Positions 15-13,504 of a DNA stretch of 64,000 bases are shown piece after piece. Below the pieces are notes generated by a model. That model ran no database searches. It worked only from the letters and a program-made list of their open reading frames with translations, and was not told the DNA's origin. A program made the position numbers and the translations under genes. Each line of letters opens with the position of its first letter. The stretch's first letter is position 1. The stretch lies in contig DATKCD010000073.1 in NCBI GenBank assembly GCA_035544735.1, positions 8,546 to 72,545 on the forward strand, given 5' to 3'. This stretch comes from Thermoanaerobaculia bacterium. GTDB taxonomy: Bacteria; Acidobacteriota; Thermoanaerobaculia; Gp7-AA8.

Positions 15-1988
15 GTGATCGAGGCCGAGTTCGTGGCGGAGGACGCAGCCGCGGGGCTGGGGCGCGCGCTCGACCGGCTGATCGAAGGGCTCGAGACCGA
101 GCGGGCACTTCGAATCGCGAAGCGGGCATTCGCCGAGGAGCTCGCGTTTCCCTACGAGCGGATGCGTCCCTTTCAGGCCGAGATGATCGACGCCGTCGCC
201 CGGACCGTCCGCGAGAGGGAGCTGCTGCTCGTCTCCGCCCCGACCGGAGTCGGCAAGACCATCGCCGCGATCTACCCCGCGCTCCGCGAGGCGCTCCGCG
301 CCGGCAGGAAGCTCTTCTACCTCACGCCGAAGACCCTCCAGCAGGAGATGGCGGTCGCCGCCCTCGGCATGCTCAACGACGGCTCGTTCCGCACCCTCCG
401 CGTCCGCGCGAAACAGAAGATGTGCGCCCATACGGAGGTGATCTGCCACGAGGACTTCTGCCCTTTCGCCGCGAAGTATCAGGAGAAGATGCAGCGGAAC
501 GGTCTGGTCGACCGGATCGCTTCCGATCTGTCGTACTTCGATCCCGACGTGATCTTCGAGATGGCGCGCGACGAGGAGGTCTGCCCGTTCGAGGTCTCGC
601 TCGAGCTGCTGGAAGAGGCGGACGTGGTCGTCTGCGACTACAACTACGTCTTCGACCCCTACATCGGCCTCAAGACCTGGAGCGACGGAGGCGACTGGTC
701 GGACGCGGTGCTGATCATCGACGAGGCGCACAACCTGGTCGATCGGGCCCGCGGCTACTATTCTCCCGAGATCTCCGGGAAGGACCTCGATCGGGTGGCC
801 TCCCACCTCGCCTCCCGCCCCGCCTTTCCCATCGACGGGTGGGAAGAGCTGCTCGAGCAGTTGCGCGATCAGCTCGCGTCGCTCGCCGAAGAGCTCGATG
901 GAGAGGTCAGCCAGGCGCTCTGCGAGCCCTCGGCGCGATTCTTCGTCTCTCAGCGGGCCGACTGGGAGCGCATCATGCTCCGCTACATCGCGTGGAAGAT
1001 CCAGCACCGCATCGCGGAAGAGGACGATCCGCTCATCGACTTCTATTTCCGCATCGTGAAGCTCTCGAACCTGCTCGGAGAGGACTGCGACGACCTCGCC
1101 AGGATCATCGAGCGCACTCCCGACGGGCCGAAGCTCAAGATCTTCTGCAAGGACCCGGCGCGATTCATCGCTCCGATCCTCGAGTCGGCCCATGCCGTGG
1201 TCGCGATCTCCGCCACCCTCCAGCCGTTCGAGTTCTACCGCAAGACCCTCGGGTTTCCGGAGCCACGCACCGCCGAGATCTCACTCCCCTCCCCCTTCCC
1301 GCGCGAGAACCGGAAGGTGATCGTCGTCTCCGAGGTCGATACGACGTACAGGAACCGGGCGCTCCATTTCGACCGGATCGCGCAGACCGTCGCCTCCATG
1401 GCCGAGTCGAACGAGGGAAATTTTCTCGCGCTCTTTCCCAGCTACGTCTTTCTCCGGGAGGTCTCCAGCCGCCTGCCGCCGACGCGCAAGAACACGCTGG
1501 TCCAGCGCCCGGACATGACCGACTGGGAGCGGCGCATGCTGCTCGACGCGCTGCGCGGAACGCGCGAGGGCGGCACGCTCGTCCTCGCCGTCTCCGGCGG
1601 CATGTACGCCGAGGGAATCGACTACCAGGGCGAGATGCTCTCCGGGGTCTTCGTGGTCGGCCCCGCACTCCCCTCGGTCTCGTTCGAGCAGGAGCTGCTC
1701 AAACAGTACTTCGACGAGCAGTACGGCGCGGGATTCGAGTACGCCTATCTGATTCCGGGGATGACGCGCGTGGTGCAGTCGGCCGGGCGCGTCATCCGCA
1801 GCGAGCGCGACGTCGGCGTCATCGCTCTGCTCTGCCGGCGCTTCACGCAGCCGATGTACACGCGCTTTTTCCCCGCCGAATGGTTCGACGAGTCTCCGCG
1901 CGAGCTCGTCACGCGCAGGCCGGTGGACGAGATCCGCGCCTTCTTCGAGGAGCGCCGCACCGGCCAGATGCGCCTCATGATTCCGTAG
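15..1988 (+). CDS. DinG/XPD(Rad3)-family ATP-dependent DNA helicase with FeS-cluster domain
   Basis: Walker A is VSAPTGVGKT and the DEAH box is LIIDEAHNL. Four Cys (CAHTEVICHEDFCPF...VCPF) lie between motifs I and II, as in FeS helicases. A C-terminal helicase_C2-like region ends in VQSAGRVIRS. GTG start at 15 is preceded by GGAGA; the true start could be upstream of the window. Confidence 0.8.
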   Translation: MIEAEFVAEDAAAGLGRALDRLIEGLETERALRIAKRAFAEELAFPYERMRPFQAEMIDAVARTVRERELLLVSAPTGVGKTIAAIYPALREALRAGRKLFYLTPKTLQQEMAVAALGMLNDGSFRTLRVRAKQKMCAHTEVICHEDFCPFAAKYQEKMQRNGLVDRIASDLSYFDPDVIFEMARDEEVCPFEVSLELLEEADVVVCDYNYVFDPYIGLKTWSDGGDWSDAVLIIDEAHNLVDRARGYYSPEISGKDLDRVASHLASRPAFPIDGWEELLEQLRDQLASLAEELDGEVSQALCEPSARFFVSQRADWERIMLRYIAWKIQHRIAEEDDPLIDFYFRIVKLSNLLGEDCDDLARIIERTPDGPKLKIFCKDPARFIAPILESAHAVVAISATLQPFEFYRKTLGFPEPRTAEISLPSPFPRENRKVIVVSEVDTTYRNRALHFDRIAQTVASMAESNEGNFLALFPSYVFLREVSSRLPPTRKNTLVQRPDMTDWERRMLLDALRGTREGGTLVLAVSGGMYAEGIDYQGEMLSGVFVVGPALPSVSFEQELLKQYFDEQYGAGFEYAYLIPGMTRVVQSAGRVIRSERDVGVIALLCRRFTQPMYTRFFPAEWFDESPRELVTRRPVDEIRAFFEERRTGQMRLMIP

Positions 1989-4785: not shown

Positions 4786-5379
4786 GTGTTTCGACGCCGG
4801 AAAGGATTCGCCCTCGTCGAGATGCTCGCCGTCGTGGCGATCGTCGGCCTGATCGTCGCGGTGAGCGTGCCCGCGTTCGGCACGATTCGCCGGAAGGCTG
4901 CGCTTCGCGCTTCCGTCCACGAGATCCGGTCCGTCATCCGGCTGGGCCGCTCGCGCGCGATCGCGCGCGGAGAGCACTCCGCGATCAAGTTCCGCAAAAC
5001 GGGAGAGGTCTGGACCTGGGCGCTCGTCGACGACCTCGACGGAGACGGCGTCCGAAACGACGACATTCTCGCGGGCATCGATCTGGTGATCGGGCGCTAT
5101 CGCGACGTGCTGGTCGCCTCGGACGAGGTCGCCATCGCCCTCCCGAGCTTTCCCGTCCGCGACCCGGATACCAAGAAGTTTCTTCCGGCGAACGCTTCGC
5201 CGGTCCGCTTCAATGCATCGACCCTCTGCTCGTTCGGTCCTCTCGGCGGAGGGACTTCCGGCTCGATCTTCCTGACCAACCGTTGGGACGACGTGGCGAT
5301 GGTGCGCGTGTCCGGAGCGACCGGGCGCGTTCGCGCGATTCTCTACGACCGCGGGACCGAGACCTGGGGTGGGCTTTGA
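4786..5379 (+). CDS. Prepilin-type N-terminal cleavage/methylation domain protein (type IV minor pilin / GspH-FimT-like pseudopilin)
   Basis: N-terminus RRKGFALVEMLAVVAIVGLIVA is a class III signal peptide (G|F cleavage site, Glu at +5). GTG start. Confidence 0.75.
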   Translation: MFRRRKGFALVEMLAVVAIVGLIVAVSVPAFGTIRRKAALRASVHEIRSVIRLGRSRAIARGEHSAIKFRKTGEVWTWALVDDLDGDGVRNDDILAGIDLVIGRYRDVLVASDEVAIALPSFPVRDPDTKKFLPANASPVRFNASTLCSFGPLGGGTSGSIFLTNRWDDVAMVRVSGATGRVRAILYDRGTETWGGL

Positions 5380-7049
5380 GGCGCCAGCGGCTCGACCGGG
5401 TCGGGCCGGCGGACGAGCAGCCGCTCGCTCTCGTAGGACTGGATCAGCGAGATCGGGCTCCCGCGAAGGAACGGATCGGTGAACGCCTCCGTGACGACCC
5501 GCCCGTCCATGTCGCGGCCGACCGGAAGCCCGGCGGCGAACAGCAACGTCGGAATGACGTCGACGACCTCGATTCCGGGGGCGTTCGCTCGCGGCGCGGC
5601 TCCGGGTGCGAGCAGGAGCAGGAACCCGTCGTCGGCGCCGGGATCGATGAGCTCCTCGACGGCGCGCACGAGGGTCGGAATCGTACCGGGGAGCACGGGA
5701 GGATGGGGGGCCGTGGGGGAGACGATCGCGAGGACGCCCGTGTCGGCAGTCTCGGCGAGGCGGGCCAGCGAAGCGTCGAGCACGGAGAGAACGGCCCGGA
5801 TGGCATCTCCCTCCGGAGAGTGGCGAGGGGGCAGAGCGTTCCTCTCGGTCTCGAGGACTCTCACGGCTCGCGCGACCGAGTGGAGCTCGATCGCGAGCAG
5901 AGACTTCGATCCCGCCGCGAGCGAAGACTCGATCCGCCGCACGTCTTCGGCGACCGCGGCGCGGATTTCGCGCGACGCTTCGGCCGGGAGCCGCTCGCTC
6001 GTCCTCGCCAGACTCTCGGCCAGCCCGGCTGTGCCCGCCGTCTCGCCGCTCTCTCCCTCCTCCGCGCCCTGGTCATCGCGGTTCACCCCGTCCCATCCGT
6101 GGACGCTCGCGTCGAATCCGAGCCGCTCCCAGGCGCGCCAGAACGGCATCGATCGCCCCGACGGCAGCAGCGCGGAGATCCGTTCCACCGGCGGGATCAG
6201 CCCCCATCCCTTGAACCCGACTCCGAAGGGGACGAGCAGAAACGGCTCGCCGGGCCGGTTCAGCAGCGTCTGATACGAGAACCGTCCGGTCACGCCGTGC
6301 CGGTTGGGAAGCTTCCCGGTCGCGAGCGAGGCCCAGAGCGCCTTCGGGCTCGTCGTTCGGAACGGCTCGACGCGCGTGAAGAACCCGCGCTCGATGGCTT
6401 CGCTGAGAAAGGGGATCGATCCCTCGCCCCGGAGCGTGATGATCCAGTCGTAGGGAAGGTCGCGCATCGCGACCAGCACGGTAGGGCGCTGCTGTCCGAC
6501 CGCGACCGTGGCGACGACCGGAGCGCGCACCTCGGTCCGATAGCCCTCGCGTCGCTGGTAGAGGAAGAAGCTCGAGACGAAGATCAGCGCCACGCCCGTC
6601 GTGAAGAGGATGCGGGAAGTCCTTCGCGAAGCCGTCCGCTCGAAGAGCCACAGGATGAGCAGCAGTGCCGCGGTCACGGCGATCACCGTGGTCGCCTTCG
6701 AGAGGATGCGGATCGCTCCGCGCGGAAGATAGATGCGGAGCGCGGCCAGGTGTGCCCAGTAGACGAGGGCGGAGATGAATGCGGCGGCGACCACGAATCC
6801 GAATCCGTGCGGGCGATATCCGTCGGACTCCTCGTCCCGGCCGAACAGACGAAACCGCGCGGACCTCGACCACCAGAGGATGCTGCCGAAGATCAGCCCG
6901 CACAGCACGCCGTAGATCAGCGTCACGGCGATCAGCCTGGGCGCCGTGATGTCGATCTGCGGGTTCAGGTAATACAGCAGGTGGGCCATGTAGAGGCCGA
7001 AGATCGCCCCAGCCACGACCCGCTTGGAGTAGCTCCAGGGGAAGCGCAT
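5343..7049 (-). CDS. Membrane-anchored alkaline-phosphatase-superfamily protein (type I phosphodiesterase/nucleotide pyrophosphatase-like)
   Basis: About five N-terminal TM helices precede a soluble domain with TTSPKALWASLATGKLPNRHGV (AlkP-core metal/nucleophile region) and a C-terminal PTLLFAAGLP motif. Its 3' end overlaps the pilin-like gene by 37 bp, convergently. Confidence 0.5.
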   Translation of the reverse strand: MRFPWSYSKRVVAGAIFGLYMAHLLYYLNPQIDITAPRLIAVTLIYGVLCGLIFGSILWWSRSARFRLFGRDEESDGYRPHGFGFVVAAAFISALVYWAHLAALRIYLPRGAIRILSKATTVIAVTAALLLILWLFERTASRRTSRILFTTGVALIFVSSFFLYQRREGYRTEVRAPVVATVAVGQQRPTVLVAMRDLPYDWIITLRGEGSIPFLSEAIERGFFTRVEPFRTTSPKALWASLATGKLPNRHGVTGRFSYQTLLNRPGEPFLLVPFGVGFKGWGLIPPVERISALLPSGRSMPFWRAWERLGFDASVHGWDGVNRDDQGAEEGESGETAGTAGLAESLARTSERLPAEASREIRAAVAEDVRRIESSLAAGSKSLLAIELHSVARAVRVLETERNALPPRHSPEGDAIRAVLSVLDASLARLAETADTGVLAIVSPTAPHPPVLPGTIPTLVRAVEELIDPGADDGFLLLLAPGAAPRANAPGIEVVDVIPTLLFAAGLPVGRDMDGRVVTEAFTDPFLRGSPISLIQSYESERLLVRRPDPVEPLAPQSPPQVSVPRS

Positions 7050-7081
7050 GCGCAGCGCCGTAGTGTAGCAGGGGGGCGGAG

Positions 7082-10000
7082 GTGATCCCTCCCGATGCCG
7101 TCGCGGCGTGCGCCGACCTCCAGGGCGTCGCCGCCCTTCTGCGCGAGCTCGGCTGGGACGTCGCGCTCCGGCCGCTCGATCCGGGATTCTGGCGGAGATG
7201 CAACGTGGCGCCTCTGCCCGACACCGCGCATCTGTTTCACGCCTCCCGTCACGGGCCGATCGAGCTGTTCGTCGCGGAAGGGACCGCCGCCCGCGACGCC
7301 GTCGCGGCTTTCACCGGCGCGCTCTCGTCGTGGAATCTCCTGCTTCGATTCGTCACGGTCTATCGTGACTCGGAGACGGGGTCGATCTCGATCTTCGGCA
7401 CGGATGGGAAGCGCCGGCTGCGCCGCATCGATCTCGACCGAACTTCGCCCAGGGCCGAAGCGCTCGCGCGGGCGGGCGCCCTGGAACTGCGCGGGACCGC
7501 CTCGTCGGCCGACTTCGTCACGGGCCTGGAGCGCGCCTTCGAGAAAGAGAGCGTCGGCCGGAAGTTCTTCCTGCGGTTCCGGGACGACGTCGCCCGCCTC
7601 TCGCTCGACCTCGCGCGCGCCTGTCCGGCCGAGGATCCCCGTGCCCTCGCCGCCGAATCTCTGCTGATTCTCTCGAGAATCCTCTTCCTCTGTTTCATCC
7701 AGGAGAAAGGGTGGCTGGACGGAAATCGCGCATACCTGTCCGATCTGGTGCGCCGATCGGCGAAGGTTCGCGAAGGAATGTTCTCGGGGGTGTTCCTGCC
7801 GCTCTTCTTCGGCTGCCTGAACACTCCGCCCGCGCGTCGCGATCCGTTCGCGCGAAAGCTGGGGCGGGTCCCCTACCTCAACGGCGGACTGTTCGAGCCG
7901 AGCGCGTTCGAGCGCCGCCACCCGGTCATCGGGCTGGACGACGCCGTGCTCGAATCGATTCTGTTCGACACCTTCGAACGTTTCCAGTTCACGATCGAAG
8001 AGGACGACGAGACCGGCGCGCACATCGACCCGGAGATGCTCGGACGGGTCTTCGAGACGCTGATGGCGGAGGACGAGCGCGCGGAGAGTGGGAGCTTCTA
8101 CACGCCGCGTGAGGTCGTCGACGTGTTGACGGCCCGGGCGATCGCCGTCCGGGTCGGGCGGGACGAGCGGCGCGCGGGCGCGGTTCTGGCGCGATGGGCG
8201 GCGGAAGGGGAGGCGGAGATCGAGAGCATCGCGAGCCGCGAGCTTCTCGTCCGCCTTCGATCGATTCGGATCCTCGATCCCGCCTGCGGGTCGGGGGCAT
8301 TCCTTCTCGCCGCGCTTCACTCGCTCGAGGGCCTCGAGCGCCGGATCTGTGAAGGGCTGGGGATCCCGCCGCCCGCCGGCGTGCGGCGCCGGATCGTCGC
8401 GAGGTCGCTTCACGGAATCGATCTCAAGCCCGAGGCCGTCCGCCTGTGCGAGCTCCGCCTCTGGCTCGCGATCGCCTCGGCTCACGACGGCGATTCGATG
8501 GAGATCGAGCCTCTCCCCAACCTCGACCGGAACATCCTCCAGGGAAACGCGCTGATCGGCCCGCTCGACTTCGCCGGAGGTGCGCGCTTCGATCTGGTCC
8601 GCGAGTGGTCGTTCGCCCTTCGCGCCCGCGAAGGGATGCTCGAGCGGTACCGCGTCGCCGCGCCGGCGGAGCGGCGCTCGCTGGCTGCGGCTCTGCGGAG
8701 CTCGGACCGGGAGCTCGCGCTCGCGATGACCTCGCGTGCGGCCGAGGTCGCACGGGACGAAGTCGACGATCTGGTCCGCCGCCAGGGCTCGCTGTTCGGG
8801 GGGAAACCGCGCCGGAACGACCCGCGAATCGCAGCGATCGAGGCGCGGATCGAAGCGGCGGATCGTGAGCGGGCGCGCATCGAGTCGGGAGAGATCGGCT
8901 TCTTCGCCCCTGACGTCCATTTCGCGCACGTCGAGCGGGACGGCGGATTCGACCTCGTGCTCGGCAACCCTCCCTGGGTCCGCGCGCCGCGCATCGAGCC
9001 ATCCCAGCGCAAAAAGCTCGCCGAGCGCTATCCGATGTTCGGCAAACCGATGCGCGGGAGCGCCATCCATCAGGGAGAGCTCGCGCTCGCCTTCTTCGAG
9101 AAGAGCCTCCGGCTCGCCGCTCCGGGAGGCGTGGTCGCCCTTCTCGTTCCGGCCAAGGTCGCGACCGCCGATTACGCCGCCCGATTTCGTTCCGAGATCA
9201 GTCGTCACGGCCGCCTCGTCGAGATCCGCGACTGGAGCGAGCGCGCACGCTCGCTCTTCGACGCAGACACGTTTCCGCTCGGTGTCGTCCTGCTGAAGGG
9301 CGCCCGGCCGGCGACGACGCTCGTGGTGGACGGCGCGTCCGGATTCGCGGTACCACAGAGACGCCTGGGCGATCGCGCCGGCGGCCCGTGGATCCTCGCT
9401 CCCGCCGAGGTTCGCTCGATCCTCGATCGTCTGCGCGATGCCGGCGAGCCGTTCGCGACGCGGTTCGCTCCCCCCATCATGGGCATCAAGACGGGAGCCA
9501 ACCTCGAGTTCTTCGTCGAGCCGGAGATCGTGAACGGATCACGGTGGGCTCGGCTGGCCGGCATCGAGGTGCCCATCGAGGCTCTCTGCCGCGTCGTGCG
9601 CGGGCGCGACGTTCGCCGATGGAGCGCCCACGGATCGGTCTGGATGCTCTGGCCCCGGCCGGGCGAGCCGTGGTTCGAGCGTTGGCGCGCCTCGGGCGGA
9701 CCGAAGCCGGCTTCGCTCGCCTACTCTCGGCCCGCCCACTTCGGTTCGAAGGTCGTCTGGAAGGACATCTCGCGCGGGATGTCGGCGGCCGCGGTGCCGC
9801 CGGAAACCGAGTTCGAAGGACGTCGCGTCGCCCTCGTTCCGAATCAGACCGTCTATTGCGCGGAGGTCCCGAACATGGAGCAGGCTCACCTCGCCGCGGC
9901 GCTGCTCAACTCGACTCTCGCGGGCGCGTGGCTCGCCTCGGTCGCCGACCGCGCGAAAGACTCCCACTTCCGCTATTTCGGCAGGACGGTGGCGGGACTG

Positions 10001-10180
10001 CCGGTGCCGCAGCTCGATCGGGAAGCCGAACGGCGGCTCGCCGGTCTGGCGGGCCGGGCCGCGGCCGGGGCCCGCGTCGAGCGCGAGATCGATCTCGAGC
10101 TCGCGCGGGCGTTCGAGATCTCCGATCGGGAGATGCGGCTCCTGGGCGAGTATCTCGAGCGCCGTCTCGGCAGAGTCTGA
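7082..10180 (+). CDS. Large N6-adenine DNA methyltransferase with helical N-domain and C-terminal target-recognition domain (Eco57I / type IIG / BREX PglX / DISARM DrmMI-like)
   Basis: Motifs seen: PYLNGGLFE (type IIG/PglX hallmark), GSFYTPREVVD (motif X), ILDPACGSGAFL (motif I, SAM binding), LVLGNPPW (motif IV, amino-MTase) and a ~350-aa TaqI_C-like specificity domain. No PD-(D/E)xK, HNH or PLD nuclease motif is recognisable. GTG start is preceded by GGAGG. Confidence 0.8.
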   Translation: MIPPDAVAACADLQGVAALLRELGWDVALRPLDPGFWRRCNVAPLPDTAHLFHASRHGPIELFVAEGTAARDAVAAFTGALSSWNLLLRFVTVYRDSETGSISIFGTDGKRRLRRIDLDRTSPRAEALARAGALELRGTASSADFVTGLERAFEKESVGRKFFLRFRDDVARLSLDLARACPAEDPRALAAESLLILSRILFLCFIQEKGWLDGNRAYLSDLVRRSAKVREGMFSGVFLPLFFGCLNTPPARRDPFARKLGRVPYLNGGLFEPSAFERRHPVIGLDDAVLESILFDTFERFQFTIEEDDETGAHIDPEMLGRVFETLMAEDERAESGSFYTPREVVDVLTARAIAVRVGRDERRAGAVLARWAAEGEAEIESIASRELLVRLRSIRILDPACGSGAFLLAALHSLEGLERRICEGLGIPPPAGVRRRIVARSLHGIDLKPEAVRLCELRLWLAIASAHDGDSMEIEPLPNLDRNILQGNALIGPLDFAGGARFDLVREWSFALRAREGMLERYRVAAPAERRSLAAALRSSDRELALAMTSRAAEVARDEVDDLVRRQGSLFGGKPRRNDPRIAAIEARIEAADRERARIESGEIGFFAPDVHFAHVERDGGFDLVLGNPPWVRAPRIEPSQRKKLAERYPMFGKPMRGSAIHQGELALAFFEKSLRLAAPGGVVALLVPAKVATADYAARFRSEISRHGRLVEIRDWSERARSLFDADTFPLGVVLLKGARPATTLVVDGASGFAVPQRRLGDRAGGPWILAPAEVRSILDRLRDAGEPFATRFAPPIMGIKTGANLEFFVEPEIVNGSRWARLAGIEVPIEALCRVVRGRDVRRWSAHGSVWMLWPRPGEPWFERWRASGGPKPASLAYSRPAHFGSKVVWKDISRGMSAAAVPPETEFEGRRVALVPNQTVYCAEVPNMEQAHLAAALLNSTLAGAWLASVADRAKDSHFRYFGRTVAGLPVPQLDREAERRLAGLAGRAAAGARVEREIDLELARAFEISDREMRLLGEYLERRLGRV

Positions 10181-12015
10181 TGGAGCTCGAGGCGTGGGTC
10201 GGCGCTGCCCGCGAGCGGACGCTCCCTCCGCTCCGCGATCCTCCGCCGGTTCGCCTCATGCCGCATCAGGAGATGGGGGCCCGGCGGCTGGTCGAGGCCT
10301 TGCGGCGGTTCGGCGGCGCTCTGCTTCTGGACGAGGTGGGACTGGGCAAGTCGTTCACGGCTGCGACGGTGGCGCGCGAGCTCGCGGCGGAGGGCTGGCA
10401 GATCGAAGCATGCGTTCCCGCTCCTCTCGTATGCGGCTGGGAGCGGACCTTCGCCCGGTTCGGGGTGGCCGGACCGATCGTGACGCACGATTCGCTGCTC
10501 CGCCGCGCAGCGAGCGGGACGGGTCGCCGGCTTCTGCTGGTGGACGAGGCGCACCGCTTCAGGAACCGGGCGACGCTCCGACACCGCGCCCTCGAGGGCT
10601 GCCGTTCGATGGCGGGCCTTCTGCTGATCACCGCGACTCCGGTCTGCAACGGCATCGAGGACCTTCTCGCGATCGTCCGGCTCGCGGTCGGCGACGATTC
10701 ATTGAAGCCGTGGGGGATTGCGTCCATCGACCGGGCCTTCGCTCTGCGCGACCGGCGATCGGTGAGGGAGATCGTGGCGGCCGTGGGACTTCGCCGTTCG
10801 GCGGAGATCGAGGGACTTCCCTTTCCATCGCTGCGGCGGGCGGTCGTTCGATTCGGGCACGGAGCGGAAGGAGCCGAGGTGCGGCGCGGAATCGAGAGCC
10901 TCGGGTTTCCCGTGCTCGGCCAGGGGGGAGGGGCGCCACTGATGAGACAGCATTTGTGGCGTCGGTTCGAATCGAGTCCCGAAGCCCTCGTCGAGTCGCT
11001 CCTGCGGCAGCGCCGCTTCGTGCGGCGGGCCGCCGAGAAGCTCGCCGCAGGATTCACGCTCAGCCGCGCCGACTTCGCCTCGATGTTCGATCGCGAGGAC
11101 CATGGAATGTTTCAGGAGGTGCTCTTCCCGGAAGCGTTTTTCGGCAGGGTGGAGCCGGCCGGGAGCTCGATCGATGCGCGACTGGAGCAGGAGCTCCGCC
11201 GGATCGAGACACTTCTGTCGCTGGCTCGCAGGGCAGGCACGCCGAAGGTCGATCTGCTCGAGGAGCGCCTCGAAGGGATCGCGATGCCGGCGGTGATCTT
11301 CACGCGTGCCGTTGCCACTGCCCGGGCGGTCGTCTCCCGGCTGCGGCTCGCCCGGCGAACGGCCTCGATCACCTCGCGGGGCGCCAGCGACGACCGGGGA
11401 TGCGCCGTCGCGCCGGAGCGCGTGCTCGCGCAGTTCCGGGCGCGGCAGCTCGACCTTCTCGTCCTGACCGATCTGGCGAGCGAAGGCCTCGACCTGCAGA
11501 CCGCCGCGAGCGTAGTGCATTACGACCTCCCCTGGACTGCCGTGAAGCTTCATCAGCGCGATGGGCGCGCCAGGCGCATCGGACAGGTGCGTCCGGAGAT
11601 CGGCTCCGTCGTCTTCATCCCGGGTCGGGCGCTCGACTCCGGCGCCATGAAGTTCATCGCGCGGAAGGAGCGGCTTTCCAATCGCTACCTGGGAGCCGAT
11701 CCCTTCCCGAGCCGGTGCGAAACGGTCATCGGCGAGCGCCTCCCGGCGCTGGCTGCGCGCTGCGGCTCCTCGGTCGTCGTCGTCGACCGCGGCATTCTTC
11801 TCTTCGTCGTGAACGGAGAAGTGACGCTGGATCCCGGATCTCCCGGAATCGGCAACCGCGACTCGGTGAGTCCGTGCGAGATTCCTCCGGTTCTCGACCG
11901 GTGGCGCGAACAGGCGGAGCTGATGCCGCCGCGGTGCGCCCGCCTCCCGCCGGTCAGCGCGGCGACTGAAACAGGGGAGCGCCCGATATCCGGTCGACGG
12001 TCGAGGCGTAGGTGA
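10180..12015 (+). CDS. SNF2-family (SWI2/SNF2, DEAH-box) helicase/ATPase, minimal core
   Basis: Motif I LLLDEVGLGKSFTA, motif II LLLVDEAHRFRN, motif III LLITATPVCNGIEDL. Helicase-C has HQRDGRARRIGQ (motif VI). The ATG overlaps the MTase stop (TGATG at 10178-10182). It is 611 aa, with no nuclease or other added domains. Confidence 0.8.
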   Translation: MELEAWVGAARERTLPPLRDPPPVRLMPHQEMGARRLVEALRRFGGALLLDEVGLGKSFTAATVARELAAEGWQIEACVPAPLVCGWERTFARFGVAGPIVTHDSLLRRAASGTGRRLLLVDEAHRFRNRATLRHRALEGCRSMAGLLLITATPVCNGIEDLLAIVRLAVGDDSLKPWGIASIDRAFALRDRRSVREIVAAVGLRRSAEIEGLPFPSLRRAVVRFGHGAEGAEVRRGIESLGFPVLGQGGGAPLMRQHLWRRFESSPEALVESLLRQRRFVRRAAEKLAAGFTLSRADFASMFDREDHGMFQEVLFPEAFFGRVEPAGSSIDARLEQELRRIETLLSLARRAGTPKVDLLEERLEGIAMPAVIFTRAVATARAVVSRLRLARRTASITSRGASDDRGCAVAPERVLAQFRARQLDLLVLTDLASEGLDLQTAASVVHYDLPWTAVKLHQRDGRARRIGQVRPEIGSVVFIPGRALDSGAMKFIARKERLSNRYLGADPFPSRCETVIGERLPALAARCGSSVVVVDRGILLFVVNGEVTLDPGSPGIGNRDSVSPCEIPPVLDRWREQAELMPPRCARLPPVSAATETGERPISGRRSRRR

Positions 12016-13504
12016 AGAAGCTCGCATGCTCGCTCGTCGCAGAGACGCGCACGGTCAGCCCGCCCGCCTCGTCGAGGCCGTCGAAGAGCGGCAGGTTCGA
12101 TTCGATCCGGCCCGGCGCGAGATTGACGTCTCTCGTTTTCACCACGGTGCCGCTGGAATCGAGAACCTCGACCCGAAGCGACGCGGCGCGCTCGCCCGGG
12201 TTCATCACCGTCACGTTCGTCCGCCCCCGCTCCGCGACTTCGAGCCCGGTCAGATAGGCGGTCTCACCCGAGTGGAACAGCCTCGGGAGCTCGATGACCG
12301 GCACCGCCTGCGCCACCCTCCCTCCGTCCGCCCGGAGGTTGTACGTCGAGCTGCGGATCACGAGATCGCCGCTCGAGGCCTCGATCAGCAGCGCTCCTCC
12401 CGCATCCCCCGGGCCGAACAGCTCGCCGATCAGATCGCCCCATCCGATCGTCGTGCCGGGGGCGATCGCCACCTCCACCGGACCGAACGCCGAGGCTCCG
12501 CCGTTCGGCAGCAGGCTCATTCGCACGCTCGCCTCGGCGTTTCCGGGGTTGTGGAGGTGGAGCTCCGAAAGCCAGCGCGAGGATTCGGCCCCGTCGAGCC
12601 GCGCGACTGCGGGAACGATCGCGCGACGATCGTAATAGAACTCGCCGCGGGTCGCCGCACCGATCAGCTCGGCCGTCGCCGTCACTCCCCCCTCGACGCG
12701 CAGGATCAGGCGGCCCGAGTACTCTCCCCGCTCGGCGGCATCGAAGAGCAGATCCACCGCGACGCTCTCCCCCGGCTGCAGCACGGCCGGAAGCGGCGCC
12801 CTCGCGCCGAAGGCCGCACTTCCGGCTTCGAGCTCCGGACGCTCGAGCCCGAGCGGCGCCGTGCCGCTATTGGTCGCGACGAGCGTCTGCGTCGCCGTCG
12901 ATCCGACCGGAACCGATCCGAAGTGGACCACCGGCCGGGAAAGCGTCAGCGAGGCCCGGGCGGAGGCGATCGCGATTCCTCCCTCGCCCACGACCCTCCC
13001 TTCGACGGCGCGACCTTCCGCATCGGACGCCGCGAAGGGCTGGACCGGGTCGATCCGGACCGGGGCGAATCCCGCCGCCCCGGGGCGCACCCGGAAGCGG
13101 AGCCGCGCGATCTCCCCCTCGGACAGAGCTCCGATCGGAGGGGTCGGATCGTAGATGGCGATCCCGAGCAGGCCCGCCTCGCTTCCCGCCCAGGAGGAGG
13201 CGGTGAACTCCCCCGGCACGGCGAGCTCGACGCGCGATCCGGCAGCGGAGTCGGGGTCGAGCAGGAGCCGTTCAGCGTCGAAGCGGATCACGAAGGCGAT
13301 CGCGGAGACGCGAGCCTCGGGGGTCGACAGCTCGATCGGAATTTCGGCGGTCCGGCCGGGAGCCGCCGCGGCGGACCCGACGGCGAGCTCCCACCCGGGC
13401 CCTTCGGCGCGTCCGGTCGTGGCGAAACCGAGGAGGATGCCGAGGATCGCCGGAGCGATGCCGCGGGCGAGTGCGGGCCGGGTGGGAGGGGCGTTCTGCG
13501 GCAT
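11954..13504 (-). CDS. Secreted hypothetical protein (signal peptide; cohesin-like beta-sandwich N-domain)
   Basis: N-terminal signal MPQNAPPTRPALARGIAPAILGILLGFATTGRA. The sequence is rich in G/A/V/T as in beta-sandwich repeats. GGAGG RBS. The family cannot be assigned from sequence alone. Confidence 0.5.
   Translation of the reverse strand: MPQNAPPTRPALARGIAPAILGILLGFATTGRAEGPGWELAVGSAAAAPGRTAEIPIELSTPEARVSAIAFVIRFDAERLLLDPDSAAGSRVELAVPGEFTASSWAGSEAGLLGIAIYDPTPPIGALSEGEIARLRFRVRPGAAGFAPVRIDPVQPFAASDAEGRAVEGRVVGEGGIAIASARASLTLSRPVVHFGSVPVGSTATQTLVATNSGTAPLGLERPELEAGSAAFGARAPLPAVLQPGESVAVDLLFDAAERGEYSGRLILRVEGGVTATAELIGAATRGEFYYDRRAIVPAVARLDGAESSRWLSELHLHNPGNAEASVRMSLLPNGGASAFGPVEVAIAPGTTIGWGDLIGELFGPGDAGGALLIEASSGDLVIRSSTYNLRADGGRVAQAVPVIELPRLFHSGETAYLTGLEVAERGRTNVTVMNPGERAASLRVEVLDSSGTVVKTRDVNLAPGRIESNLPLFDGLDEAGGLTVRVSATSEHASFFTYASTVDRISGAPLFQSPR

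Follow-up and report, generated by a model that had tools for sequence, protein, structure and literature searches.

What does an adenine methyltransferase akin to phage-defence enzymes do when it is encoded at a fixed place in a core chromosome, beside an SNF2-family ATPase and without a nuclease? The question is raised by two adjacent genes in a stretch of 64,000 nucleotides (hereafter the window; contig DATKCD010000073.1, positions 8,546 to 72,545), which is core chromosome, of high GC content (~67%), from a bacterium of the class Thermoanaerobaculia (Acidobacteriota). Judged from its sequence, the product of the first gene is a gamma-class N6-adenine DNA methyltransferase (MTase) of PglX/MmeI-type architecture with its own specificity domain, and that of the second is a minimal SNF2-family ATPase, i.e., the core of a double-stranded DNA (dsDNA) translocase. 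Methylase-plus-SNF2 modules are known only within multi-gene, mobile phage-defence systems (DISARM class 1 and the Hma/BREX-related systems), in which the killing is left to a nuclease or to additional ATPases. The pair described here is inherited vertically at a core-genome position and is under purifying selection, and the explanation that we prefer, at about even confidence, is that it is a domesticated, chromosomally fixed, nuclease-free methylase-translocase module with a cellular epigenetic role. An initial annotation of the locus, made from the sequence alone, had offered two other explanations, i.e., a self-contained methylation-plus-translocase immunity system and a stripped remnant of DISARM.

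When the species representatives of GTDB were scanned with an SNF2 profile, at least 578 relatives were obtained; among the best 80, ~37 belong to Thermoanaerobaculia and ~40 to Gemmatimonadota. The MTase gene lies directly upstream of the SNF2 gene, within the same flanks, in all the Thermoanaerobaculia loci of this set that have enough flanking sequence, and ~40 Gemmatimonadota species carry an MTase orthologue (33-37% identity, 77-98% coverage) directly upstream of SNF2 on the same strand. The two genes are adjacent in ~115 loci of the two phyla, so that the neighbourhood survey proposed in the initial annotation found the pair to be kept as a unit. The translational coupling through a TGATG stop/start overlap by which that annotation had joined the MTase gene to the gene of a 611-residue SNF2 ATPase is confirmed from the sequence. 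Of 38 Thermoanaerobaculia loci, 36 have stop and start codons that overlap or nearly abut, the modes being -11, -8, and -4 nt. The flanks in Gemmatimonadota are different and encode an anti-sigma factor, an adhesin-like protein, a HAD phosphatase, an aminotransferase, an aldehyde dehydrogenase, PhoU, and PitA. Since the flanks differ between the phyla while the pair stays adjacent, the conserved unit consists of the MTase and the SNF2 protein and nothing else. Two outlying carriers were also observed. A metagenome-assembled genome (MAG) labelled 'proteobacterium' (L083) has adjacent MTase (29%) and SNF2 (32%) genes with a TGATG-type 1-nt overlap, and in a Truepera MAG (L088) an MTase-like match lies ~1.2 kb downstream, instead of upstream, of the SNF2 gene (28%).

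The genome of the window was inspected over 64 kb and the related loci over flanks of 6-10 kb. No gene for DrmA/B/C, PglZ, BrxC, a DUF499 protein, or a stand-alone nuclease was found in the 64-kb window or in the flanks of ~150 related loci, and no third gene is conserved beside the pair in these ~150 loci of two phyla; the lack of a nuclease and of PglZ and BrxC genes noted in the initial annotation therefore holds in the window and is shared by the related loci, which are without DrmA/B/C as well. Known relatives of the two proteins do work with such partners, and one could suppose that the pair belongs to a larger defence system and that the other components (a nuclease, a DUF499/BrxC-type ATPase, PglZ, or DrmABC) lie elsewhere in the genome, beyond the 64 kb inspected here and the 6-10 kb inspected in the relatives. 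We consider this improbable; defence systems are almost always clustered, and the ~150 loci share no third gene, and their flanks are wholly different between the phyla.

Six divergent SNF2 homologues (40-46% identity), found on long metagenomic contigs from different samples, all lie in the neighbourhood seen in the window. The shared gene order is NAD kinase, ClpX-like AAA, ComEA (HHH_3), pseudopilin, AlkP-like (minus strand), MTase, and SNF2, which are followed by a variable segment, a sigma-54 response regulator (NtrC), DUF192, rhomboid, PTPS, DUF1802, DnaJ, and ECF sigma genes. The core of this order, from the AAA ATPase through AlkP-like (minus strand), MTase, and SNF2 to PTPS, is also found in ~34 GTDB species representatives. 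Because these loci had been found through the pair itself, metagenome contigs were also scanned with a profile of the AlkP-like protein, which serves as an anchor independent of the pair, and a locus was counted if its AlkP-like gene was orthologous (at least 43% identity) and had no less than 700 nt of sequence upstream. In 39 of 40 such loci the MTase gene is divergently upstream of the AlkP-like gene, and the SNF2 gene comes next on every contig that extends far enough. The pair is missing beside AlkP-like homologues of lower identity (26-31%).

The divergence of both proteins follows that of their neighbours. Across the Thermoanaerobaculia loci, similarity to the window copies correlates with the similarity of NtrC (r = 0.73 for the MTase and 0.75 for SNF2) and with that of the AlkP-like protein (r = 0.60 and 0.75, respectively). 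The ratio of nonsynonymous to synonymous substitution rates (dN/dS), calculated for 26 phylogenetically independent close pairs, is 0.11-0.17 in every structured domain of the MTase, with 0.16 in the target-recognition domain (TRD) versus 0.13-0.14 in the catalytic halves; that of the SNF2 gene is 0.14. No TRD swap was found among these 26 pairs. Across both phyla, 129 MTase residues are conserved, including 21 in the TRD, for which the mean identity is 0.46 versus 0.52-0.59 for the catalytic halves, while the N-terminal domain and the C-terminal tails are the most variable parts. By these measures, the TRD is conserved and not diversified. Both enzymes look active, as the S-adenosylmethionine (SAM)/NPPW motifs and the ATPase motifs are invariant. 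Compared with its mobile relatives, the pair lacks a nuclease domain and partner genes, as a decaying, non-functional remnant of a DISARM- or Hma-like system would; however, the catalytic motifs are invariant in ~50 orthologues of each protein, dN/dS is ~0.14, and full-length open reading frames (ORFs) of both genes are kept in >100 loci. The invariant motifs and the low dN/dS argue that the pair is not a remnant, and we regard the DISARM-remnant idea of the initial annotation as extremely improbable.

The pair had also been described as inserted between unrelated genes, a description that does not hold. Its GC content (0.70) and its GC content at third codon positions (GC3; 0.84) agree with those of the flanking genes, by which a horizontal insertion into the window was rejected, and the flanks are syntenic with the pair throughout the class. 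The remaining genes of the window are housekeeping genes (FolD, EF-Ts, GltX, PyrD, rpoB/C, EF-G, and EF-Tu), and no other defence genes were found near the pair within the 64 kb. A phage or plasmid origin was rejected as well. IMG/VR holds a single orthologous match (L089), on a contig with host synteny, and the pair family was not found on genuine viral contigs of this database; no plasmid protein is more than ~30% identical to either member of the pair.

Two further observations concern viral contigs and Deinococcus radiodurans. Five IMG/VR contigs (L090 and L092-L095) carry a distant, partial SNF2 match (31-37%) followed 1-3 kb downstream by a distant MTase match (25-28%); on these viral contigs, the two may make up mobile modules of SNF2-then-MTase order. 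In Deinococcus radiodurans MP1 (L153, positions 157173-168669), genes for a DEAD/DEAH helicase of 1706 aa, a helicase-related protein of 941 aa, and a class I DNA methyltransferase in split form are clustered, with insertion sequence (IS) elements on the flanks and then a gene for an McrB family protein.

Domains of the two proteins and the search for a nuclease

The MTase matches the Pfam families Eco57I (1.6e-17), MmeI_Mtase (4.8e-12), and N6_Mtase, and weakly MmeI_hel (residues 197-271). In PADLOC the best match is REase_MTase_IIG (5e-37), followed by DrmMI (3e-19) and PglX (1e-11), all of which are partial; residues 1-140 lie outside every PADLOC match, including those of the Type IIG profiles. 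With the NCBIfam models of PglX, the scores are 25-54 bits where the cut-offs lie at 400-900, the best being BREX_6_MTaseX with 54 versus 900. When a profile of 49 MTase orthologues was compared with the PDB, CamA was matched best (Table 1), followed by MmeI (3e-11) and BrxX/PglX (2e-8). The AlphaFold2 (AF2) model of the MTase has a mean predicted local distance difference test score (pLDDT) of 82.9 and a predicted TM-score (pTM) of 0.73, and a Foldseek search with this model places PglX/BrxX at the top over the whole chain (~1045 columns), together with CamA (TM 0.70), M.BseCI, and MmeI. The order of the domains is an N-terminal alpha/beta domain, a helical spacer, a gamma-class N6-MTase domain with a long helical insertion, a TaqI/CamA-like TRD, and C-terminal helices.

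The hallmarks on which the initial annotation had based its assignment of a 1032-residue Eco57I/PglX/DrmMI-type MTase with a specificity domain, namely (P)YLNGGLFE (residues 264-272), DPACGSGAFLL of motif I (residues 399-409), and NPPW (residues 629-632), are invariant in the 49 orthologues, and the assignment is borne out. The start codon at 7082 is backed by the conserved residues L19, L23, and G24. The helical spacer contains 39 residues that are conserved across both phyla, and the only invariant residues in the N-terminal domain are W37, N85, R114, R115, and R130.

The SNF2 protein matches SNF2-rel_dom and Helicase_C in Pfam, and weakly ResIII (1e-4), the latter only at motif II. Walker A GLGKS (residues 54-58), DEAH (residues 122-125), TATP (residues 151-154), and motif VI QRxGRxxRxGQ (residues 459-469) are invariant in 48 orthologues. 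The core begins at residue 25 and is thus without an N-terminal accessory domain. In Foldseek, the AF2 model (pLDDT 87.9, pTM 0.88) resembles generic motor cores of the remodellers SWR1, Chd1, ISWI, and INO80, as well as ZorD. Both RecA lobes, motifs I/II/III/VI, and the helical insertions of SNF2-family dsDNA translocases are recognized from the motifs, the AF2 model, and the Foldseek matches taken together. NCBIfam scores are all far under the cut-offs (DpdE, 96 versus 500; DrmD, 78.5 versus 610; RapA, 38 versus 576), and in PADLOC the protein matches DrmD partially (2e-24), while the HmaA model covers residues 414-470 only. The matches in PADLOC, NCBIfam, and Foldseek agree with the earlier statement that the pair comprises the DrmMI and DrmD kinds of protein.

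RapA is among the weak matches of the SNF2 protein and lineage-wide orphan methylases exist, and the pair might accordingly consist of two unrelated housekeeping functions in one operon, i.e., an orphan methylase and a RapA-like ATPase that recycles RNA polymerase. The initial annotation had named this combination as an outcome that would speak against its own proposal. The MTase does behave as a lineage-wide orphan, but a RapA-like nature of the SNF2 protein was rejected: the RapA match is confined to residues 426-471 (motif VI), RapA appears in Foldseek at rank 31 with a TM-score of 0.39 (TMq), and the N-terminal tandem Tudor-like domains are missing. Moreover, the adjacency and the overlap of the genes are kept in two phyla despite different flanks, and the helicases that the SNF2 core resembles most are of the HKD-SNF2/DrmD kind, which partner methylases, so that we regard two unrelated functions as very improbable.

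The C-terminal part of the SNF2 protein contains a small beta-domain with a helix (residues 523-581), which has no match in Pfam; a comparable segment is found in the Gemmatimonadota orthologues by full-length alignment. This domain, which AF2 predicts with confidence, could be an element for docking of the MTase or one that reads DNA or the methyl mark. The Gemmatimonadota orthologues are longer by 210-325 residues at the C-terminus.

These sequences were also searched for a hidden nuclease. With a Pfam threshold of E<=10, no match was obtained in residues 1-145 of the MTase or residues 480-611 of the SNF2 protein, and the orthologue alignments contain no invariant acidic, Lys, or His residue in the N-terminal region of the former or the C-terminal part of the latter. 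A PD-ExK domain in the N-terminal domain of the MTase and a nuclease in the C-terminus of the SNF2 protein were both rejected on these grounds. The extra 210-325 residues of the Gemmatimonadota SNF2 proteins likewise give no profile match and have no strongly conserved acidic, Lys, or His residue. An MTase relative on a Nostoc plasmid has a homologous 'LGY' N-terminus, and the nuclease there sits on the helicase. Residues 1-140 of the MTase are therefore judged to be non-nuclease, because they have few invariant residues and no profile match and because the N-terminus of the Nostoc relative is alike. As far as can be judged from the sequences, neither protein has a nuclease domain.

Cellular role or immunity

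The fixed position, the presence throughout the clade, the co-divergence with the host, the lack of an association with mobile or defence genes, and the conserved TRD favour a domesticated cellular module. The intact catalytic motifs, the lack of a nuclease, the sequence match to CamA, and the kept stop/start overlap speak for it as well. This pattern of distribution parallels, by analogy, that of Dam, CcrM, and CamA. The pair is not patchy in its distribution, it is not on islands or mobile elements, and its specificity is not diversifying, as would be expected of mobile defence systems; on the other hand, like orphan methylases of the Dam/CcrM/CamA type, it has no cognate nuclease and is inherited vertically at a stable locus in a large clade. 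For a single conserved methylation motif, such as those methylases serve, the conserved TRD would be indirect support.

The main rival is an immunity without a nuclease, in which the MTase would mark self DNA, the complex would sense unmethylated motifs on incoming DNA, and the motor would block replication or transcription or strip proteins in a BREX-like manner, the system having become fixed in these lineages. BREX is likewise without a classical nuclease, and the nearest families of both proteins are all defence components. In one class 1 DISARM, deletion of drmABC left partial protection, against T1 and M13 (bioRxiv 10.1101/2021.12.28.474362), so that genes of the DrmD and DrmMI types may protect without the core. 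What such an immunity would hardly predict is the syntenic fixation across a class and, again, across a phylum, and the co-divergence with the host; phage, plasmid, and island contexts are without the pair, and no defence genes are nearby. The TRD is conserved without swaps, while phages easily escape a fixed specificity, and the related Hma system requires its nuclease, the nuclease domain of HmaA being essential to defence (PMC11232893). The core synteny in 39 of 40 anchored loci, the co-divergence, the absence from phage and plasmid DNA, and the conserved TRD thus speak against the self-contained immunity system of the initial annotation, and we regard a nuclease-free immunity as the less likely reading, though a serious rival.

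Several points weigh against the domesticated cellular module, and some of them, including the DISARM deletion just cited, favour immunity. All close relatives whose function is known are parts of defence systems (PglX/BrxX, MmeI, DrmMI, DrmD, DpdE, and HmaA). The MTase (42-51% identity) and SNF2 (39-46%) are the fastest-evolving genes of the syntenic block, compared with 71-83% for NtrC, and the N-terminal domain and C-terminal tails of the MTase vary most, as might be expected under immunity. As the pair occurs in two phyla that are not sisters, it must have been transferred horizontally at least once in the distant past, and since the Gemmatimonadota loci were found through the SNF2 profile, its universality in that phylum is presumptive. 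The sole exception among the 40 anchored loci (L192) has a low-GC3 foreign island (S24/LexA-type repressor, TPR protein, and M4 peptidase) at the place of the pair; the pair has perhaps been lost there or perhaps lies outside the 9-kb flank. Finally, the cellular, non-immune role is deduced from the distribution of the pair alone.

If the pair is a domesticated cellular module, it would work as follows. The MTase and the SNF2 protein would form a complex, the TRD would read one fixed short motif, and the MTase would methylate an adenine within it. The SNF2 motor would spend ATP on tracking along the DNA or clearing bound proteins, by which the chromosome would stay methylated after replication; alternatively, the motor might act on DNA depending on its methylation state. 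The DNA would not be cut, and the mark would serve gene regulation, replication, or repair, as those of Dam, CcrM, and CamA, instead of restriction. Complex formation and the coupling of translocation to methylation are what we infer for the pair in this scheme. A more specific proposal, which we advance tentatively, as possible, is that both phyla possess an undescribed, clade-wide epigenetic machine in which a defence-derived PglX-like MTase depends on a dedicated SNF2 motor for maintaining chromosomal methylation at one ancient, fixed motif. Such a machine would be a bacterial counterpart of the remodeller-dependent DNA methylation of eukaryotes (DDM1/LSH with DNMTs, and the SNF2-fused DNMT5) and would represent an immune module turned to housekeeping.

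The contribution of an SNF2 motor to a PglX-type methylase can be studied in this pair in a minimal form that occurs in nature. Should the role of the pair be cellular, it would be the third large case, after Dam and CcrM, of a restriction-modification (R-M)-type methylase in housekeeping and the first whose partner is driven by ATP; should the role be defence, no smaller nuclease-free immunity based on methylation would be known, and the pair would be a rare instance of clade-wide fixation.

Features of the locus

The features of the locus are collected in Table 1. The AlkP-like protein has an alkaline-phosphatase-superfamily domain with a sub-threshold match to Pfam Phosphodiest and 0 PADLOC hits. 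Its gene always adjoins the MTase gene divergently in Thermoanaerobaculia, with a spacer of 11-206 nt, and is not beside the pair in Gemmatimonadota; the ComEA and pseudopilin genes lie directly beyond it. The idea that this protein might be a cryptic PglZ was rejected on account of these matches, its polytopic nature, and its absence beside the Gemmatimonadota pair, and the gene is treated as merely a syntenic neighbour.

Table 1. Positions of the genes, protein domains, and motifs around the pair in window coordinates. Coding regions were judged from the ORF list and GC3; residue ranges refer to the protein named.
Feature	Position	Strand	Remarks
AlkP-like polytopic membrane protein gene	5343..7049	-	divergent from MTase gene; 32-nt spacer
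MTase gene, 1032 aa	7082..10180	+	ORF and translation; GTG start
MTase N-terminal alpha/beta domain, aa 1-140	7082..7501	+	least conserved domain; judged non-nuclease
MTase helical spacer, aa 141-330	7502..8071	+	weak MmeI_hel; PDB match to MmeI at aa 191-456
PYLNGGLFE (in helical spacer)	7871-7897	+	
MTase catalytic domain, aa 331-745	8072..9316	+	motifs invariant in 49 Thermoanaerobaculia and 27 Gemmatimonadota orthologues
Motif I DPACGSGAFL	8276-8305	+	
Coiled helical insertion, aa 491-600		+	
Motif IV NPPW	8966-8977	+	
TaqI/CamA-like TRD, aa 746-975	9317..10006	+	PDB match to CamA at aa 617-814, 4e-18
TGATG stop/start overlap	10178..10182	+	read from sequence; TGA and ATG share A10180
SNF2 gene, 611 aa counted from ATG at 10180	10180..12015	+	ORF and translation
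SNF2 C-terminal beta-domain and helix, aa 523-581	11746..11922	+	AF2: five short strands and one helix, pLDDT 84-96
SNF2 predicted-disordered tail, aa 591-611	11950..12015	+	pLDDT < 50; overlaps 3' end of gene 11954..13504
Secreted Ig/cohesin-like protein gene	11954..13504	-	convergent; 62-nt overlap with SNF2 3' end

In the spacer between the AlkP-like and MTase genes (7050-7081), the sequence AGTGTA(G/A/T)C is found at 7062-7069, which reads on the minus strand as TACACT and resembles a -10 box. It is kept 10-16 nt from the start codon of the AlkP-like gene in most Thermoanaerobaculia loci and probably serves as promoter for an AlkP-like mRNA with almost no leader, or as an operator shared by the divergent genes. 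In the loci whose spacers are longer than ~45 nt (L010, L033, L029, L017, L047, L015, and L003), the surplus consists of inverted arrays of short tandem repeats, e.g., GGGAGTC xN ... GACTCCC xN. Arrays of the same style occur in the window, where a 9-nt unit, GAGCGTCTT, is repeated 13 times at 2527-2644 and another, CCAGACGCC, is repeated 27 times at 2679-2921. These two arrays are mutually reverse-complementary and 35 nt apart, and thus form a very long imperfect inverted repeat, which sits between a cytidine/dCMP deaminase gene and the 3' end of the ClpX-like gene. The spacer and window arrays together suggest that these genomes contain a class of mini-repeat insertions that form hairpins. 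The deaminase gene (2001-2525) follows a gene for a DinG/XPD-like helicase (15-1988, plus strand), which matches the PADLOC profile 'typeIV_DinG, CAS-IV-A associated' with 1.2e-114; no cas genes are nearby.

Comparison with known systems

Among known proteins, PglX/BrxX of the BREX systems (PDB accession numbers 8C45 and 9EWZ) is the best structural match of the MTase over the whole chain; the order of the domains is common to them, and neither has a nuclease. The MTase is only 13-14% identical to PglX/BrxX, however, and the genes for PglZ, BrxC, BrxA, BrxB, and BrxL are missing here. Its partner is an SNF2 ATPase, and the pair belongs to the core genome and is inherited vertically. Neither PglZ nor BrxC/PglY is encoded at the locus, the neighbours have 0 PADLOC hits, and the score against the PglX equivalog falls far short of its cut-off.

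The likeness to the MmeI-type (Type IIL/IIG) enzymes is seen in the MmeI_Mtase and MmeI_hel matches, in the alignment with PDB 5HR4 over the MmeI segment listed in Table 1, and in REase_MTase_IIG as the best PADLOC profile. The gamma-class N6-MTase, the helical spacer, and a TRD of its own are all present. MmeI-type enzymes carry a nuclease of the PD-(D/E)xK type in the N-terminal domain, whereas the window MTase does not, and MmeI_TRD and MmeI_C were not detected in it by Pfam. Type ISP enzymes (LlaGI/LlaBIII) resemble the pair in that they join a translocase driven by ATP to a gamma-class adenine MTase and a TRD, but they do so within one polypeptide, which also has an Mrr-like nuclease, and their motor is Type-I-like instead of SNF2. 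With respect to the Res subunit of Type III R-M systems, the ResIII match of the SNF2 protein is weak and a C-terminal PD-ExK nuclease was not found in it.

The pair is related to the defence modules that couple such a methylase with a nuclease-fused SNF2 protein, i.e., DrmMI/DrmD(+DrmC) of DISARM class 1, the Hma/BR systems, and plasmid-borne MTase and HKD-SNF2 genes. DISARM class 1 consists of the DrmABC core with DrmD and DrmMI (bioRxiv 10.1101/2021.12.28.474362), and its adjacent DrmD (SNF2 helicase) and DrmMI (adenine methylase) are the kinds of protein found in the window. The core of DrmA, DrmB (DUF1998), and DrmC (PLD) is missing here, in the 64-kb window and in the ~150 loci, DrmD has ~1000 residues versus 611, its model is matched with 78.5 instead of 610 bits, and the PADLOC matches are partial.

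The Hma or 'BREX-related' (BR) systems consist of a DUF499 ATPase (HmaC), an N6-MTase, and a Swi2/Snf2 helicase with a fused restriction endonuclease (REase) or HKD nuclease; in BR types 1 and 2 the SNF2 helicase carries the REase or HKD nuclease, and in type 3 PglZ is found alongside (PMC12839542). No DUF499 gene was found in the window or the related loci, the SNF2 protein is not fused to an REase or HKD domain, and there is no PglZ. A two-gene form, Gemmatimonadota, and Acidobacteriota are not mentioned in the paper on BREX-related systems (PMC12839542), and a literature search found no description of an MTase-SNF2 pair in Gemmatimonadetes or Acidobacteria.

The closest mobile relatives that we found are on the plasmids pn2 of Nostoc (L154) and pRadio5 of Deinococcus radiophilus (L155), whose MTases are 26-30% identical to that of the window over most of their length. 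In both operons the MTase gene is followed by small ORFs or a gene for a DUF262 protein (PADLOC HEC-05) and by a gene for a helicase of ~1090 residues, and toxin-antitoxin genes lie around them. The plasmid MTases match Type IIG profiles with 1e-133, and the helicases match 'HKD+Snf2' with 6e-67 in addition to DrmD and DrmC. The window SNF2 protein aligns end to end with residues 210-815 of the 1097-aa HKD+SNF2 plasmid helicase (E = 6e-27), with RFESS common to both, and corresponds to its motor core; the PLD/HKD nuclease at the N-terminus and the 280 residues at the C-terminus of the helicase have no counterpart in it. No DUF499 ATPase gene is present within the displayed 16 kb of either plasmid locus, and these operons may be a variant of the Hma/BR type-2 systems with two core genes. 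The Hma/BR and plasmid helicases carry an N-terminal HKD or a C-terminal REase domain, whereas the window SNF2 protein has neither; they are encoded on plasmids or islands among toxin-antitoxin and defence genes, whereas the pair is not.

As regards methylases with cellular roles, CamA of Clostridioides difficile (PDB accession number 7LNI) is the best PDB sequence match of the C-terminal MTase and TRD half, with a TM-score of 0.70 on the target, and, like the window MTase, it is a lineage-conserved N6-methyladenine (m6A) methylase, an orphan found species-wide without a cognate nuclease. It has 577 residues and lacks the N-terminal domain, the helical spacer, and an SNF2 partner. Dam and CcrM are similar to the window MTase in that they are fixed in large clades and have R-M-type ancestry, but they work without an ATPase partner and are related to it in sequence no further than the superfamily. 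An SNF2 motor is tied to DNA methylation in the DDM1/LSH-dependent and DNMT5 systems of eukaryotes, which modify cytosine in chromatin and share sequence kinship with the pair only at the level of the superfamily; the likeness would thus be a functional analogy.

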